From Candidatus Rokuibacteriota bacterium (GTDB lineage: Bacteria > Methylomirabilota > Methylomirabilia > Rokubacteriales > CSP1-6): a stretch of DNA of 64,000 nucleotides. Each line of letters starts with the position of its first letter. Positions within the stretch are counted from its first letter, which is position 1. The stretch is taken from assembly GCA_023248995.1 (NCBI GenBank), contig JAHFDN010000007.1, positions 3,980-67,979 of the forward strand. Direction: 5' to 3'. A program made the translations under genes and the position numbers. The notes under the pieces are model-generated. The model ran no database searches. It had not been told where the DNA came from and was given only the letters and a program-made list of their open reading frames with translations. Shown one piece after another: positions 16,509 through 60,307 of this stretch.

Positions 16509-17291
16509 TTATCCCTTCCTGACGCGCACCGCGGCGCCCCGGCGCGCCCCCATCACTGCCTGCGCGCTCCCCTCTCGAACAGAAATCTCCAGGCGACCGC
16601 TCGAGCCGATCAGCGCGCCGACTCCTCCCGGGGGGAGATCGGCGTAGCAGGGGACGATCCTCCCGACCTCCTTCTCCTCCACCTCGACGACCAAGGCGGC
16701 GGCCGGGCCAAGAGCCTCGAGATCCGTCAGCCGGAGGGAGGTCACCAGGTTGCCGAACCTGTCGGCATGAATCACCTCCCCCGCCAGACGGTCCCCTTCC
16801 CGCCGCGCGGTGGGCCAGGGGATGACAACGGGATCACTGAGCGGGGGGCCGAAGCGATGGAGGGGGACCCCGACGGCCAGGTGGGCCGCCGCCGGCGCGA
16901 AGATATCCCGCCCGTGGAAGGTTTGGCTCACGGTAGGAAGACGGTAGGCGGGAGCCTCGAGCGCCACAGCGCTCCAGGCGGCCGCGCGGAAGAGAAAGGT
17001 GAAGAGGCCGTTGTCCGGGCCGACGAACAGCTGGCCCGCGGCTGCGGCCGCGAGCGGACGCCGTGTGCTTCCGACCCCCGGGTCCACCACCGCCAGGTGA
17101 ATGGTCCCCGGCGGGAAAAACGGCACGGCGGCCTCGAGCGTGATGGCGGCCTCCAGGACGTCATGGGAGGCAATGTCGTGGGTCAGGTCAACCAAACGCA
17201 CGGTGGGGGCGATCTGGAGAATCACCCCCTTCATCACGCCGACGAATGGGTCCCGCGTCCCGAAGTCCGTCGTCAAGGTAATAATCGGCAC
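16509..17291 (-). CDS. SAM hydroxide adenosyltransferase (DUF62 / fluorinase-chlorinase-like fold)
   Basis: N-terminal ..PIITLTTDFGTRDPFVGVMKGVI.. and C-terminal barrel pattern typical of the DUF62 family. GTG start. Confidence 0.7.
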   Translation of the reverse strand: MPIITLTTDFGTRDPFVGVMKGVILQIAPTVRLVDLTHDIASHDVLEAAITLEAAVPFFPPGTIHLAVVDPGVGSTRRPLAAAAAGQLFVGPDNGLFTFLFRAAAWSAVALEAPAYRLPTVSQTFHGRDIFAPAAAHLAVGVPLHRFGPPLSDPVVIPWPTARREGDRLAGEVIHADRFGNLVTSLRLTDLEALGPAAALVVEVEEKEVGRIVPCYADLPPGGVGALIGSSGRLEISVREGSAQAVMGARRGAAVRVRKG

Positions 17292-17466
17292 TGCGCTAAG
17301 TCCTCATGCCGTGGCGAGAACCGAGCAGCCCAAGGCCCGAGGGAGGAGCCGACCGGAGCGTAGCGACCACGCCGGCCTGCGGCCGGACGTGGTGCCCGTA
17401 GAGGAATGGCGACGAGCGACGATAACTAACGGCCGAAGGCCATCCTTGGCGGGCACCCACGAAGTG

Positions 17467-17491
17467 GGTCGTGCGACGGTTATCGCCACGG
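17467..17491. repeat. 25-nt conserved motif GGTCGTGCGACGGTTATCGCCACGG abutting the ispB stop codon (copy 1 of 2)
   Basis: 22/25 identical to 28783-28807. Embedded in a region whose minus-strand transcript forms two UUCG-tetraloop hairpins (ACCCAC-UUCG-GUGGGU and GGCC-UUCG-GCC). Confidence 0.6.
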
Positions 17492-17492
17492 A

Positions 17493-18494
17493 CTAGCGGT
17501 CGCGGTCCACCACGTAGTCCGCGATCAGGCTCAACGTCTCCCGTTCCTCGGAGAGCGGGAACGGGGCCAGGTCCTCCTTCGCGGCCCGCGCATAGCTCCG
17601 GGCCCGGCTCAGGGCGTACTCGACCCCGTCGTACTTCACGACGAGGCGGCGGATCTCCTCGACCCCCTGGTCGTTCAGCTCGTGGGGGGCCAGGATGGAC
17701 AGGATGCGCTCCCTGTCGCCGTCACTCGCCCGCTCGAGCGTGGCGATGAGCGGCAGGGTGCGCTTTCCTTCCCGCAGGTCGGCCCCGACTGCCTTGCCCA
17801 GGCGCGCCTGATCGGCCACGAAATCCAGCGAATCGTCGCTGAGCTGAAAGGCGACCCCCACGTCCAGTCCGTAGCGCGTCAGGGCATCGACTCGCTCGGC
17901 GTCCGCCTGCCCGAGGAGAGCGCCGATCCGGCAGCAGGCGGAGATGAAAGAGGCGGTTTTCTGCGTGATGATGCGAAGGTAATCGGCCTCCGTGGCGCTG
18001 CCGTTGCGCTTGTGCTCGAGCTGGAAGACCTCCGCCTCGGTCATCGAAACAGTGGCGCGCGCGAGGGTCTCCATGATCGAGCGGTCGTTGTCCCGGACGA
18101 GGATCGAAAAGGACTTGGAGTAGAGGTGGTCGCCGACGAGGATGGAGGCATCGTCGCCCCACTGCGCGTTGGCGGAGGGACGACCGCGCCGGAGCGAGGC
18201 CTGATCCACCACGTCGTCGTGCATCAGGGTCGCGGTGTGCAGGAGCTCCACCGCACACCCCAGCCGCGTGCTCCGCGGCCCGCGGTAGCCGGCGAGGCGA
18301 GAGGCAAGCAGGAGGAGGATCGGCCGGAGTCGCTTGCCGCCGGCGCTGGCGATGTAGCCCCCCATTTCCTGAATCAGCGCGACCGGGGAATCGAGCGCGC
18401 TGGCGATCTCCTCCTCGATCGCGCGAAGATCGGCACCGACGAGCAAGCCGACGCGCTCCTTCAGCAGGGTTTCCAGGGTGGCGGTGCGACCCAA
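17493..18494 (-). CDS. ispB: polyprenyl diphosphate synthase (octaprenyl/heptaprenyl-type; IspB-like)
   Basis: FARM motif LMHDDVVD and SARM motif (..FQLSDD..); about 333 aa. Confidence 0.85.
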   Translation of the reverse strand: MGRTATLETLLKERVGLLVGADLRAIEEEIASALDSPVALIQEMGGYIASAGGKRLRPILLLLASRLAGYRGPRSTRLGCAVELLHTATLMHDDVVDQASLRRGRPSANAQWGDDASILVGDHLYSKSFSILVRDNDRSIMETLARATVSMTEAEVFQLEHKRNGSATEADYLRIITQKTASFISACCRIGALLGQADAERVDALTRYGLDVGVAFQLSDDSLDFVADQARLGKAVGADLREGKRTLPLIATLERASDGDRERILSILAPHELNDQGVEEIRRLVVKYDGVEYALSRARSYARAAKEDLAPFPLSEERETLSLIADYVVDRDR

Positions 18495-24134: not shown

Positions 24135-24722
24135 ATGGCGGAGGTTGAGCTTCCCAACCCCGAAGAGCTGAAGGAGAAGGCCGAGCGGTCTTTCAGCCGG
24201 CGCGTCGCACTGGTGACCGCGGTCTACGCGGTCGTCCTCGCCATCGCCTCCCTGGGCGGGAACAACGCCATGAAGGAGATGCTCCTCGCCCAGCAGCAAT
24301 CCTCCGACCAGTGGTCCTTCTACCAGGCGAAGGTCATCCGCGAGCACCTCTACCGGGCTCAGCGGCTCCCCCTCGAGCTGGCGCTGGCCGAGCCCGGGGC
24401 GCTCAAGGGACCGGAGCGGCAGAAGGTCGAGGCGCTGGCGACGAAGTTCAGCGAGGAGGAAAAGCGCTACAACGCCGAAAAGAAGGACATCGAAAAGGAT
24501 GCCAGGAAACTGGAGCACGAGCGCGATCGGAACCGCGACAAGGACCCCTACTTCGACTATGCCGAGGTGCTCCTCCAGATCGCCATCGTGATGGCGTCGG
24601 TCTCGATCCTCGCGACATCGCGCCCCCTGTTCCTCTTCAGCCTGGCCCTGTCGTTACTCGGGGCGCTCCTGACTGTCAACGGCTACACGCTCTCCTTCCG
24701 CCTCCCCTTCCTCCACCACTAA
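24135..24722 (+). CDS. DUF4337-family protein
   Basis: Charged helical N-terminal region plus a C-terminal TM pair (..VLLQIAIVMASVSILATSRPLFLFSLALSLLGALLTV..), consistent with DUF4337. Confidence 0.5.
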   Translation: MAEVELPNPEELKEKAERSFSRRVALVTAVYAVVLAIASLGGNNAMKEMLLAQQQSSDQWSFYQAKVIREHLYRAQRLPLELALAEPGALKGPERQKVEALATKFSEEEKRYNAEKKDIEKDARKLEHERDRNRDKDPYFDYAEVLLQIAIVMASVSILATSRPLFLFSLALSLLGALLTVNGYTLSFRLPFLHH

Positions 24723-24724
24723 TT

Positions 24725-24801
24725 CCTCGGAGGGGGCCTCGACGGCCCCCTCCGATTCCTCCCCCTAGGGTTGCGCTGGCATAGCCAGCGCTCGAACGGC
24801 C
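24725..24801. repeat. GC-rich intergenic repeat element, copy A (about 77 bp, two hairpins)
   Basis: Starts 3 nt after the DUF4337 stop, between convergent genes. Aligns to copies B and C. Contains GGAGGGGGCC-TCGAC-GGCCCCCTCC and GCGCTGGC-ATA-GCCAGCGC. Confidence 0.75.
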
Positions 24802-27695: not shown

Positions 27696-28676
27696 TCACG
27701 CGTAGCAGACCCGGCGGATGGCGGCGATGATCTTCTCCTTCGAGGGCGTCTTCGCTTGCTCCAGATTTTTCGCGTACGGCATGGGGGCGTTGGCGCCGGT
27801 GACCCGCTCCACCGGAGCGTCGAGGTCGTCGAAGGCGTTCTCGGTGATGAAAGCGACGATCTCCGATCCCATCCCGGCGAAACCGGCACCCGCTTCCACG
27901 ACCACCGCCCGGTGAGTCTTCCTGACGGAGCCGATCAACGTCTCGATGTCCATGGGCCGGAGCGTCCTGGGGTCAACGATCTCGCACGAGATCCCCTCCT
28001 GGGCCAGCGCCTCCGCCGTCTCCAGCGCCCGGTACATCATCCCCATGTAGGCGATCACCGTCACGTCCGTCCCCTCCCGGCGGATCTTCGCCCGGCCGAG
28101 CGGGATGGTGAAGTCCGCGTCGTCGGGGACCTCGCCCTTGATGCCGTAGAGCGTCTCGGACTCGATGAAGATGACCGGGTTCTCGTCGCGGATGGCGCTC
28201 TTCAAGAGCCCTTTCGCATCCTCGGGAGTGGAGGGGCGCACCACCTTGAGACCCGGCACGTGGTAGAAGTAGGACTCCATGGACTGGGAATGCTGAGCAG
28301 CCAGTTGATGGGCGGGTCCGCCCGGGCCGCGCACGACGATCGGGACGTTGAACTGCCCCCCCGACATGTAAGACATCTTGGCCGCGGAATTGACGATCTG
28401 ATCGAGCGCCAGGATGGCGAAGTTGAAGGTCATCATCTCCACCACCGGCCTGAGCCCCAGCATGGCGGCGCCGATCGCCACCCCCGTAAACCCGGACTCG
28501 CAGATCGGCGTGTCCATCACGCGCCGCTCGCCGAACTCCTTGAGGAGCCCCTGAGTCACCTTGTAGGCGCCGTCGTACACCCCGATCTCTTCGCCGAGGA
28601 GGAACACCCGCGGATCGCGCCGCATCTCTTCCCGCAGAGCCAGGTTCAGCGCCTCACGATACGTCATCACACTCAT
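27696..28676 (-). CDS. pdhB: pyruvate dehydrogenase E1 beta subunit
   Basis: Transketolase-like beta subunit pattern (..RVMDTPICESGFTGVAIGAAMLGLRPVVEMMTFNF..). Confidence 0.9.
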   Translation of the reverse strand: MSVMTYREALNLALREEMRRDPRVFLLGEEIGVYDGAYKVTQGLLKEFGERRVMDTPICESGFTGVAIGAAMLGLRPVVEMMTFNFAILALDQIVNSAAKMSYMSGGQFNVPIVVRGPGGPAHQLAAQHSQSMESYFYHVPGLKVVRPSTPEDAKGLLKSAIRDENPVIFIESETLYGIKGEVPDDADFTIPLGRAKIRREGTDVTVIAYMGMMYRALETAEALAQEGISCEIVDPRTLRPMDIETLIGSVRKTHRAVVVEAGAGFAGMGSEIVAFITENAFDDLDAPVERVTGANAPMPYAKNLEQAKTPSKEKIIAAIRRVCYA

Positions 28677-28690
28677 ACGCTACTCCTTCT

Positions 28691-28767
28691 CCTCGGAGGG
28701 GGGCTAGCGCCCCCCTTCCGAACCTCCCCCCGGGATGGCGAGGGCAAAGCCCTCGCTCGAAGCCGCC
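28691..28767. repeat. GC-rich intergenic repeat element, copy B (between pdhA stop and pdhB start)
   Basis: CCTCGGAGGGGGGCTAGCGCCCCCCTTCCGAACCTCCCCCCGGGATGGCGAGGGCAAAGCCCTCGCTCGAAGCCGCC. Confidence 0.75.
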
Positions 28768-28782
28768 TGATCGAACGTTGTC

Positions 28783-28807
28783 GGTCGTGCGACGGTTATC
28801 GACACGG
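28783..28807. repeat. 25-nt conserved motif GGTCGTGCGACGGTTATCGACACGG abutting the pdhA stop codon (copy 2 of 2)
   Basis: Ends 3 nt before the pdhA stop triplet. Immediately follows repeat element copy B. Confidence 0.6.
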
Positions 28808-28810
28808 CGC

Positions 28811-29809
28811 CTACTCCTTGAAGATGTCCGTGGTCAGCCACTCGAGCGGCGGCTCGGGGGAGGCGTCGGCGAAGGCCACGGCTTCGTCCACGAGGTCGTT
28901 GATGTCTTTCTCGATGGTTTTCACCTCGCCCTCCGTCAGGACTCCGTCCTTGAGACAGCGCCCCCGGAACAGCGCGATGGGGTCGCGCTGCTTCTCGCGC
29001 TCCACCTCTTCCTTCGTCCGGTAGATCGCCGCGGAGGGGTCGCGCATAGAGTGCCCCCGGAAACGGTACGTGCGCGCCTCGATCAGGCTGGGCCCCTGCC
29101 CCCGCCGGCCGCGCTCGACCGCCCGTCCGACGACCTCCCGCACCGCGAGGACGTCCATGCCGTCCACCGCCTCGCCGGCGATACCGTAGGTCTCCGCGTA
29201 GCGCCAGATCTCGGTTTGGGCCAGCGCCCGGTGGATGGCGGTCCCCATGGCATACCGGTTGTTCTCGCACAGGTAGATCACGGGGAGCTTCCAGAGGGCC
29301 GCGAGATTCAGCGATTCGTGGAATTCCCCCTGGGGCACCGCGCCGTCCCCGAAATAGCAGACGACCACCTGGTCGCCACCCTGGTACTTGACGGCGAAGG
29401 CGGCCCCCGCCGCCAGCGGCAGATGCGCGCCCACGATGGCGTGTCCTCCCAGGAAGTTCTTGGACTTGTCGAAGAGATGCATGGAGCCGCCCCTGCCTTT
29501 ACTCAGGCCGTCGCGGCGGCCAAAGAGCTCGGCCATGATGCGGCGCGGGTCCGACCCTTTCGCCAGGCAGTGGCCGTGCTCCCGGTAGGAGGAGATCGCG
29601 TAGTCGTCGGGCCTGAGCGCAGCCGTGGCCCCCACCGCAACCGCCTCCTCGCCGATGTAGAGGTGGAGGAAGCCGCCGATCTTGCCCAGGGCGTACATCT
29701 CCGCCGCCTTTTCCTCGAAGCGACGGATCAGGACCATCTGGGAGAGAAGCCGACGCGCCAGCTCGGCGTCCACCTTTGGCGCCACCGTTATTGCCTTCGC
29801 TTGAGCCAT
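28811..29809 (-). CDS. pdhA: pyruvate dehydrogenase E1 alpha subunit
   Basis: ThDP-binding ..GDGAVPQGEFHESLNLAALWKLPVIYLCENNRYAMGT.. Confidence 0.9.
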   Translation of the reverse strand: MAQAKAITVAPKVDAELARRLLSQMVLIRRFEEKAAEMYALGKIGGFLHLYIGEEAVAVGATAALRPDDYAISSYREHGHCLAKGSDPRRIMAELFGRRDGLSKGRGGSMHLFDKSKNFLGGHAIVGAHLPLAAGAAFAVKYQGGDQVVVCYFGDGAVPQGEFHESLNLAALWKLPVIYLCENNRYAMGTAIHRALAQTEIWRYAETYGIAGEAVDGMDVLAVREVVGRAVERGRRGQGPSLIEARTYRFRGHSMRDPSAAIYRTKEEVEREKQRDPIALFRGRCLKDGVLTEGEVKTIEKDINDLVDEAVAFADASPEPPLEWLTTDIFKE

Positions 29810-60226: not shown

Positions 60227-60230
60227 AACC

Positions 60231-60307
60231 CCTCGGAGGGGGGCTCCGCCCCCCTTCCGACGCCTCCCCCACGGGATTGCGCGGGCAAAGCCCGCGCTCG
60301 AACGGCC
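60231..60307. repeat. GC-rich intergenic repeat element, copy C (between nuoK2 stop and nuoL start)
   Basis: CCTCGGAGGGGGGGCTCCGCCCCCCTTCCGACGCCTCCCCCACGGGATTGCGCGGGCAAAGCCCGCGCTCGAACGGCC. Confidence 0.75.

Follow-up and report, generated by a model that had tools for sequence, protein, structure and literature searches.

A dispersed, folded repeat at operon junctions of Methylomirabilota with a putative relay reading frame

Introduction

Among the described bacterial repeats, the mycobacterial interspersed repetitive units (MIRU; Supply et al. 1997, summarised in PMC12548453 and PMC3184786) are the closest to the element reported here, a folded repeat that follows a polyprenyl synthase (ispB-like) gene of Candidatus Rokuibacteriota bacterium, in 64,000 nt of contig JAHFDN010000007.1 (the window, that is, the whole stretch analysed). 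As far as these summaries describe MIRU, both are dispersed intra-operon repeats, co-oriented with the flanking genes and part of the polycistronic mRNA; both have empty and filled sites and an internal open reading frame (ORF) with its two ends coupled to the adjacent stop and start codons; and for both, insertion is thought to take place at start codons and to disturb expression little. By the same descriptions, MIRU are 40-100 bp long, often tandem and found in Mycobacterium, whereas the element is 170-235 nt long, single at each site and found in Methylomirabilota. The element further differs from them in its conserved multi-helix fold, compensatory changes, cUUCGg loops and variable-length flanking repeats, and its 5' junction has spacers of 3-5 nt where the MIRU described have -4 overlaps. 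By analogy, the element appears to work like a MIRU and not to be a member of that family, from which it is set apart on the features compared.

The REP/BIME and ERIC repeats are likewise abundant, structured, mosaic and modular, and are transcribed in operons or just past stop codons (PMC3184786, PMC2817692). A REP is a single palindrome of ~35 nt, and its copies alternate in orientation; the ERIC palindrome has 127 bp and occurs either way round. Both are without a frame-maintained ORF or a stop-anchored closing stem, whereas the element copies found have one orientation. The 20-40 nt palindrome with conserved head and alternating orientations by which REP/BIME are recognised is absent from the element. 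[quoted passage not shown] The element differs from them in its single orientation, covarying termini and relay ORF, and no fixed target duplication or parent insertion sequence was found. The Rickettsia palindromic elements (RPE) are also palindromic, translation-compatible selfish repeats, made harmless by staying in frame (PMC3184786). RPE insert within protein-coding genes and join the protein, while the element forms a separate mini-cistron between genes.

The comparisons below point to a dispersed insertion element of operon junctions, a conclusion that we hold with high confidence.

Results

The 25-nt motif GGTCGTGCGACGGTTATCG(C/A)CACGG matches exactly at 17467-17491 and 28783-28807 of the window (+ strand coordinates), and had no match in 100 dinucleotide-preserving shuffles. 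As an earlier note on this DNA had reported, both copies lie just past stop codons: the ispB-like ORF (17493-18494, minus strand) has its TAG stop at 17493-17495, 1 nt from the motif, and pdhA (28811-29809, minus strand) has its TAG stop at 28811-28813, 3 nt from the motif. Two UUCG tetraloop hairpins claimed by the same note for the 201-nt spacer after ispB (17292-17492) could be located on the minus strand: in the RNA, positions 17469-17455 form ACCCAC-UUCG-GUGGGU, and positions 17442-17430 form UGGCC-UUCG-GCCG. The bracket that it drew around them, CGAUAAC (17485-17479) with GUUAUCG (17426-17420), is present after ispB and restricted to that copy; in the minimum free energy (MFE) fold of the window copy and in all relatives CGAUAACCG pairs elsewhere, with CGGUUCUCG of the 3' arm (17323-17309). 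A match at 1326-1340, with one mismatch to the 15-mer core, has no flanking similarity and was discarded as chance.

The shared 19-base core of the two window copies was scanned against one genome per species, and 22 loci were detected. Nineteen of these are in seven metagenome-assembled genomes (MAGs) of Methylomirabilota/Rokubacteria, with at most five per MAG; the other three are in unrelated phyla, and about four chance matches are expected from the size of the collection. A metagenome scan yielded 39 more loci, 36 of them with the same flanks (contigs from the Hainich groundwater wells are among the carriers), and a lone match in a viral contig, with unrelated flanks, was rejected as chance. 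The earlier note had made its proposal depend on further copies in relatives, and these occur in MAGs and in metagenome contigs (loci from other genomes or contigs that were compared with the window carry L-numbers, L002-L070).

The flanks of the core can be aligned over ~195 nt, with the consensus (C)TAG CGCC GTG CCGATAACCGTCGCACGACC, then several hairpins, and the 3' end GCTCGGTTCTCGGCCCGGCGC. A profile search (nhmmer, ~495 kb DNA) detected 46 full-length matches, 33 of them distinct, in length classes of ~170, 195, 200, 210-217 and 235 nt; internally deleted and 5'-arm-only derivatives also exist. Each site has one copy, except the rearranged L002. The window holds one full copy (17304-17495), which matches the family profile at 17492-17304 (E=2e-53) and could be aligned to 16-20 others of the family. 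It also holds a remnant of the 5' arm (28775-28810 by nhmmer). Rfam 15 at gathering thresholds gave no match in the whole window except one tRNA, and three element copies searched at E up to 10 gave chance-level matches only. We found no description of the element in the literature, where searches on Rokubacteria/Methylomirabilota and on coupling-preserving repeats returned only MIRU literature.

Contigs were fetched for close homologues of IspB and PdhA, and the junctions to the following genes were compared. Between ispB and the SAM_HAT gene, L065 (CGC TAG CGGC GTG) and L066 (TAG CA GTG) have empty junctions, while the junction is filled by 201 nt in the window, 166 nt in L064 and 136 nt in L063; in every case compared, the last residue of the upstream protein is unchanged in position. 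Between pdhA and pdhB, L069 (TAG CGCC ATG) and L070 (TGA AACC ATG) are empty, and the window (134 nt) and L068 (169 nt) are filled. L068 has a complete short-variant element bounded by a 14-nt duplication, AAGGAGTAGGCGCC. In the window, another repeat adjoins the 5' arm, and AAGGAGTAG stands at either side. Since the complete element of L068 carries the same rare GTGT variant at the same junction, the window pdhA copy, whose match to the element is confined to its initial ~36 nt (positions 3-38 of the nhmmer model), is a remnant of the same insertion. The element is thus an insertion into tight junctions of the form stop-N2-4-start.

Other copies lie at the S10/L3, L18/S5 and mutS/mutL junctions and ahead of fabF, tatC and dinB, as identified by translated flanks and Pfam; this approach replaced flanking-gene calls based on G+C content at third codon positions (GC3), which are unreliable in DNA of 68% G+C. 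Most copies have a co-directional gene within tens of nucleotides downstream, and the junctions lie within operons. No copy antisense to the upstream gene was found, with some cases left uncalled by the crude gene calling. No U-tract terminator is present in 17100-17700, and a promoter pattern is likewise absent there.

The 5' end of the element (TAG YGCC GTG CCG ATA ACC; window 17478-17495) resembles the native ispB/SAM_HAT junction together with the first bases of SAM_HAT (TAG TGCC GTG CCG ATC ATC), with a 10/12 match over GTGCCGATNANC (window 17289-17298 and the 3' junctions of L063 and L064). This resemblance could reflect the origin of the family, or it could be coincidence.

The end of a long ORF on the same strand precedes CGATAACC by 10-14 nt in most copies, with -11 the commonest position. 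Of 31 distinct copies, 24 have TAG as this upstream stop, compared with 36% among gene-like ORFs of the window and loci (p=3e-6). A GTG or ATG follows 3-5 nt past this stop in ~80% of the loci. The fixed register arises because the element begins with stop-N3-5-GUG/AUG and inserts into stop-start junctions; its own stop, spacer and start explain the register, so that no 3'-end signal is needed.

From this start codon, frame 0 is open across the element in all 33 distinct copies (169-235 nt). The placement of the next stop was examined in the 22 copies that have any stop within 21 nt past the 3' arm. For 18 of these copies, the earliest of such stops falls in frame 0 (p=4e-6, or p=2.5e-5 without two orthologous duplicates), while the distance from the start to the end of the arm spans all three classes modulo 3 (7, 15 and 10 copies). 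In 14 copies the following gene starts at a distance of -4 to 19 nt from the in-frame stop, and one such pair is a GTGA overlap with mutL. The three alleles of the ispB junction (window, L064 and L063) have ORFs of 186, 150 and 120 nt in the same frame, ending at the same UGA, and the composite L019 copy has the in-frame end TAG-CGGC-ATG. The four full-length copies that have no start codon have no in-frame stop nearby.

The encoded peptide does not behave as a conserved product. Between them, the copies use all three frames across the 3' arm, changes that compensate each other in the hairpins alter amino acids on both sides, and the G+C content of the relay ORF at codon positions 1, 2 and 3 is flat (0.68, 0.67 and 0.71), unlike that of host genes. 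The relay peptide has no Pfam match and no homologue among 5.8 billion protein clusters, and the source annotations call no gene in the element spacers. The feature that is kept is thus a path open to translation and not a protein.

A consensus fold with 59 pairs in nine helices was obtained with RNAalifold from 17 copies of the main length class. Helix P1 (19 pairs) begins at the last base of the upstream stop codon and closes the entire element; the hairpins P2 and P3b are capped by cUUCGg loops, P3 pairs over a long range, P4 forms a hairpin of 12 pairs, and two short helices follow. The features of the window copy, all on the minus strand, are as follows.

17304..17495, minus strand: full-length element copy, from the ispB stop UAG (17495-17493) to the end of the internal ORF; defined by nhmmer, alignment and the empty junctions L065/L066
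17467..17491, minus strand: the 25-mer, made up of spacer, GUG start, P1 5' strand and the invariant CGAUAACCGUCGCACGACC
17304..17489, minus strand: relay ORF, GUG 17489-17487, 61 codons, UGA 17306-17304; covers the entire folded element
17477..17493, minus strand: P1 5' strand GUCCGUGGCGAUAACCG, which takes in the stop codon's G as well as the GUG start
17309..17323, minus strand: P1 3' strand CGGUUCUCGCCACGG, from fold and alignment
17455..17469, minus strand: P2 hairpin ACCCAC-UUCG-GUGGGU; one pair is A-U in 7 copies and G-C in 10
17394..17454, minus strand: P3 domain, in which GCCCGC pairs with (G/A)CGGGC; encloses P3b UGGCC-UUCG-GCCG (17442-17430)
17366..17393, minus strand: P4 hairpin ACCACGUCCGGCC-GCAG-GCCGGCGUGGU; three pairs changed on both sides, G-U in 8 copies
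17328..17356, minus strand: P5 region (CCGG...CUCGG, GCC-UUG-GGC), conserved with little covariation
17289..17305, minus strand: 3' tail and restored junction, with GAGGA resembling a Shine-Dalgarno (SD) sequence (17305-17301), UAG 17298-17296, CGCA and the SAM_HAT GUG 17291-17289

Standard pairing is found in 96.7% of the cells of the 17-copy alignment. With shuffled 3' partners the value is 91.0%, and none of 500 shuffles reaches the observed one; with partners slid by 1-3 columns it is 32-45%. Both sides have changed at 13 pairs, seven of them in P1, and P1 variants outside the alignment also pair (CCACG/CGUGG in L034, GGCCGGGUCGA/UCGACCCGGCC in L002). The extra segments of longer variants are hairpins themselves, and the unpaired junction sequences are invariant across species. 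The consensus energy is alike on both strands (-84.3 versus -83.4 kcal/mol). The sense strand is favoured by the gene orientation, by conserved G-U pairs at two positions (16/17 and 8/17 copies) and by three cUUCGg loops, a motif whose stability is confined to RNA of this sense.

Mobility of the element is suggested by presence and absence at orthologous sites, many copies per genome, subfamilies shared across unrelated loci, and derivatives with deletions. Complementarity between the P1 arms extends over 15-19 nt, and the arms vary by compensatory change; this variation suggests that pairing, and not a sequence bound by a protein, is under selection. The stop codon is part of every clear flanking repeat (8, 8, 9, 14 and 23 nt). 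A target-site duplication was sought as the longest common substring of the 5' junction and the 3' flank in two designs, and in neither did cognate pairs match better than non-cognate pairs (permutation p=0.47). In many copies TAG recurs shortly past the 3' arm (within 12 nt in ~40%, by eye); a TA/TAG/CTAG duplication as a general rule could not be established, as cognate flanks have no excess similarity. Variable-length flanking repeats and a single orientation make the element a poor fit to a classical MITE with terminal inverted repeats (TIRs) and target-site duplications.

Orthologous copies evolve slowly. The element is 94.6% identical between L015 and L054, compared with 76% at third codon positions of the upstream gene, and 95% identical between L021 and L017, compared with 84% at third positions of dinB. 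Between the window and L064 the identity is ~96% by hand count (~4 differences in a well-aligned stretch of ~100 nt) against 72% at ispB third positions, and 88.3% when computed over the wider shared 3' part. Orthologous copies thus evolve like first and second codon positions, 3-5 times slower than synonymous sites. The differences between orthologues cluster as swaps of whole hairpins between the two P4 variants seen across the family, and the variants of P2, P3b and P4, essentially two states each, occur in all combinations among copies. These whole-hairpin swaps and free combinations make gene conversion among copies likely.

Several variants were noted among the copies. A short variant with UCCCGGCGUUC in place of P2-P3b is present in L063, L064, L068, L002 (first copy), L051 (4163-4255) and L014 (3206-3296), that is, at unrelated loci as well as at the ispB junction, which in the window holds the long form. 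That a single orthologous site can carry different variants points to copies having exchanged sequence. A subfamily (L011, L018, L020, L010/L012, L016 and L005) has a conserved 3' extension of ~60 nt (CAGTGGCGTCCTGCC...GTTGGGCGAACAAGCAAGCTAG), which the relay frame crosses, ending at the terminal TAG or TGA of the extension. The 18-kb contig L039, on which a ribosomal-protein operon lies, carries full copies at 14059-13868 (S10/L3) and 6238-6026 (L18/S5; the same as L014 433-645), a partial copy at 3465-3375 and two copies of a second repeat, module 2, described below. L002 has two partial copies in tandem (6560-6250, minus strand), each after the 23-nt gene end GGTCAAGAAGCGCTGACGGCCGG, which occurs a third time past the tandem and would represent an unusually long target duplication or a rearrangement.

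Discussion

Taken together, the empty and filled junctions, the placement of starts and stops and the fold lead us to favour, with moderate confidence for the mechanism in full, a mobile MIRU-like intercistronic repeat with a relay ORF that preserves translational coupling. The mechanism is suggested by the anatomy of the element together with what is known of termination-reinitiation coupling (reviewed in PMC12548453). The element would be co-transcribed in sense within the polycistronic mRNA, and in the folded state P1 sequesters the GUG/AUG start codon. A ribosome at the upstream stop would cover the next dozen or so nucleotides, so that the 5' strand of P1 would be opened, and could reinitiate at the exposed GUG. 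It would then translate across the element, unfolding the structure on the way, and terminate beside the following start codon, often by an SD-like tail (in the window, GAGGA at 17305-17301), where it would be handed on to the next gene. The insertion would in this way restore the coupling that it interrupts, which would explain the persistence of copies in ribosomal-protein operons. Rho-dependent polarity, too, may be reduced by the compact fold in combination with a translated spacer.

Several points weigh against this proposal. No transposase, fixed target duplication or autonomous parent was found in ~590 kb of loci DNA. The slow evolution of orthologous copies is unlike that of decaying selfish DNA and needs either a function or gene conversion. 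Translation of the relay ORF and reinitiation are inferred from sequence, and about six to eight loci have GGG, GGC or ACG at the position of the start codon. Frame 2 is also open in most copies, and openness alone is weak evidence because GC-rich DNA is poor in stop codons; the case for the relay ORF rests on stop placement and the start codon, not on openness. Since the two-state helices reassort, they represent few independent compensatory events outside P1.

Another explanation is that the element is a cis-acting RNA module selected by the host, acting as an mRNA stabiliser or processing site, or as a ribosome gate bound by a protein or ligand, with the ORF only a means of read-through. 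This account overlaps with the insertion-element account, the difference being who benefits, and purifying selection for a function of the fold may be either its main rival or an addition to it. The rate 3-5 times below synonymous sites, the invariant unpaired junction sequences, the three sense-strand cUUCGg tetraloops, the retention of copies in ribosomal-protein operons and a P1 that hides the start codon are all in its favour. Close relatives are, however, without the element at the same junctions, large internal deletions and module swaps persist (L034, L053, L063 and the window pdhA copy), the conservation can be explained by gene conversion as seen in the whole-hairpin swaps, and no ligand- or protein-binding family matches. 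We regard a host-selected module as possible but doubtful. Somewhat less probable still is a new class of structured intercistronic RNA under selection that gates ribosome hand-over in dozens of operons, sensing a protein, a ligand or temperature; such a class may spread unconventionally, and RNA- or microhomology-mediated spread would explain the single orientation and the variable-length duplications that always include the stop codon.

If the P1 arms were instead the TIRs of an ordinary DNA-level MITE, mobilised by a DDE transposase with a TA/CTAG target (IS630- or IS5-like), structure and ORF would be incidental. Arms complementary over 15-19 nt, filled and empty sites, internally deleted derivatives, the TAG on both sides of the window copy (CTAG...TTAG) and the TAG within 12 nt past the 3' arm in ~40% of copies (by eye) are consistent with this. 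A palindromic target with TIRs predicts insertion in both orientations, whereas all distinct copies have one; no fixed-length duplication was detected (permutation p=0.47), the arms vary by compensatory change and are not conserved as a binding site would be, and the frame-consistent stops are left unexplained, so that we consider a conventional MITE improbable. The earlier note had read the region as a 3'-end element, that is, a terminator or antiterminator, a protein-binding 3' untranslated region (UTR) or the source of a small RNA. Much of its description is retained, as the element is recurrent, structured, mRNA-sense and stop-anchored; in addition, the 19-bp P1 could be an RNase III substrate that releases a discrete fragment. 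The next gene starts 12 nt past the end of the internal ORF, therefore the spacer is intercistronic and not a 3' UTR, and with no terminator- or promoter-like site present a role in termination or antitermination is unsupported. Most copies are soon followed by a co-directional gene at operon-internal junctions, no Rfam family matches, and the same gene ends in relatives lack the element, which makes a 3'-end element very unlikely. A small protein gene of 55-90 aa, duplicated around the genome, would account for the start, open frame and stop in ~80% of copies, but the C-terminal two thirds are in different frames across copies, the compensating changes are non-synonymous on both sides, the host GC3 signature is absent, and neither a Pfam match, a homologue in 5.8 billion protein clusters nor an annotated gene was found. 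That explanation is close to refuted.

As an insertion element of operon junctions, the repeat provides a concrete, testable case of how ~200 nt can settle in the closest-set junctions of essential operons and leave these intact, bringing their own start codon, with copies that keep an in-frame stop beside the next gene. The principle has so far been proposed essentially for mycobacterial MIRU and would be extended here to an uncultured phylum and to a much larger, folded element. Such spacers are currently blank in Methylomirabilota annotation. The element may also serve as a natural model of termination-reinitiation across a stable RNA structure, and as a natural bicistronic relay it may interest designers of synthetic operons.

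Additional observations

The remnant after pdhA is joined to a copy of module 2, a second dispersed repeat of ~75 nt. The features of this junction in the window are as follows.

28762..28813, minus strand: remnant element copy after pdhA, with stop UAG 28813-28811, spacer GCGCC, GUG 28805-28803 and 5' arm 28807-28783
28776-28762, minus strand: degenerate 3' partner of the remnant, GUUCGAUCAGGCGGC, from the fold
28687..28761, minus strand: module-2 copy fused to the remnant, two G+C-rich hairpins
28674..28688, minus strand: duplicated junction AAGGAG-UAG-CGU, then pdhB AUG (28676-28674); AAGGAGUAG is also at the pdhA end (28819-28811)

The relay frame of the remnant stops at a UAG (28706-28704) in a module-2 hairpin loop, 27 nt before the pdhB AUG, and the start-proximal AAGGAG-UAG at pdhB is in the same frame as this relay.

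Module 2 consists of the hairpin GCGNGGGC-UUYG-GCCCNCGC, a G-run and the hairpin UCGGRAGGGGGG-CGGAG-CCCCCCUCCGA. Its usual 3' end, ...CCUCCGAGG, lies 0-8 nt ahead of a start codon, for example at several nuo operon junctions. The window has copies at 24722-24798, 28687-28761 and 60229-60304, all on the minus strand, and others are in L069 (4095-4171), L070 (5758-5833 and 9608-9683) and L068 (7451-7526); nhmmer gave 31 matches in 590 kb of DNA that had not been chosen for module 2.

Three pairs of window segments, 29980-30100/60489-60609, 30424-30514/60900-60990 and 31512-31565/61909-61962, are 70-76% identical and lie 30.4-30.5 kb apart. The first copies of at least two of the three segments are located where syntenic loci have genes of the nuoJ/nuoK type (Oxidored_q3/q2), and this suggests that the window contains a further, paralogous set of NADH dehydrogenase genes.

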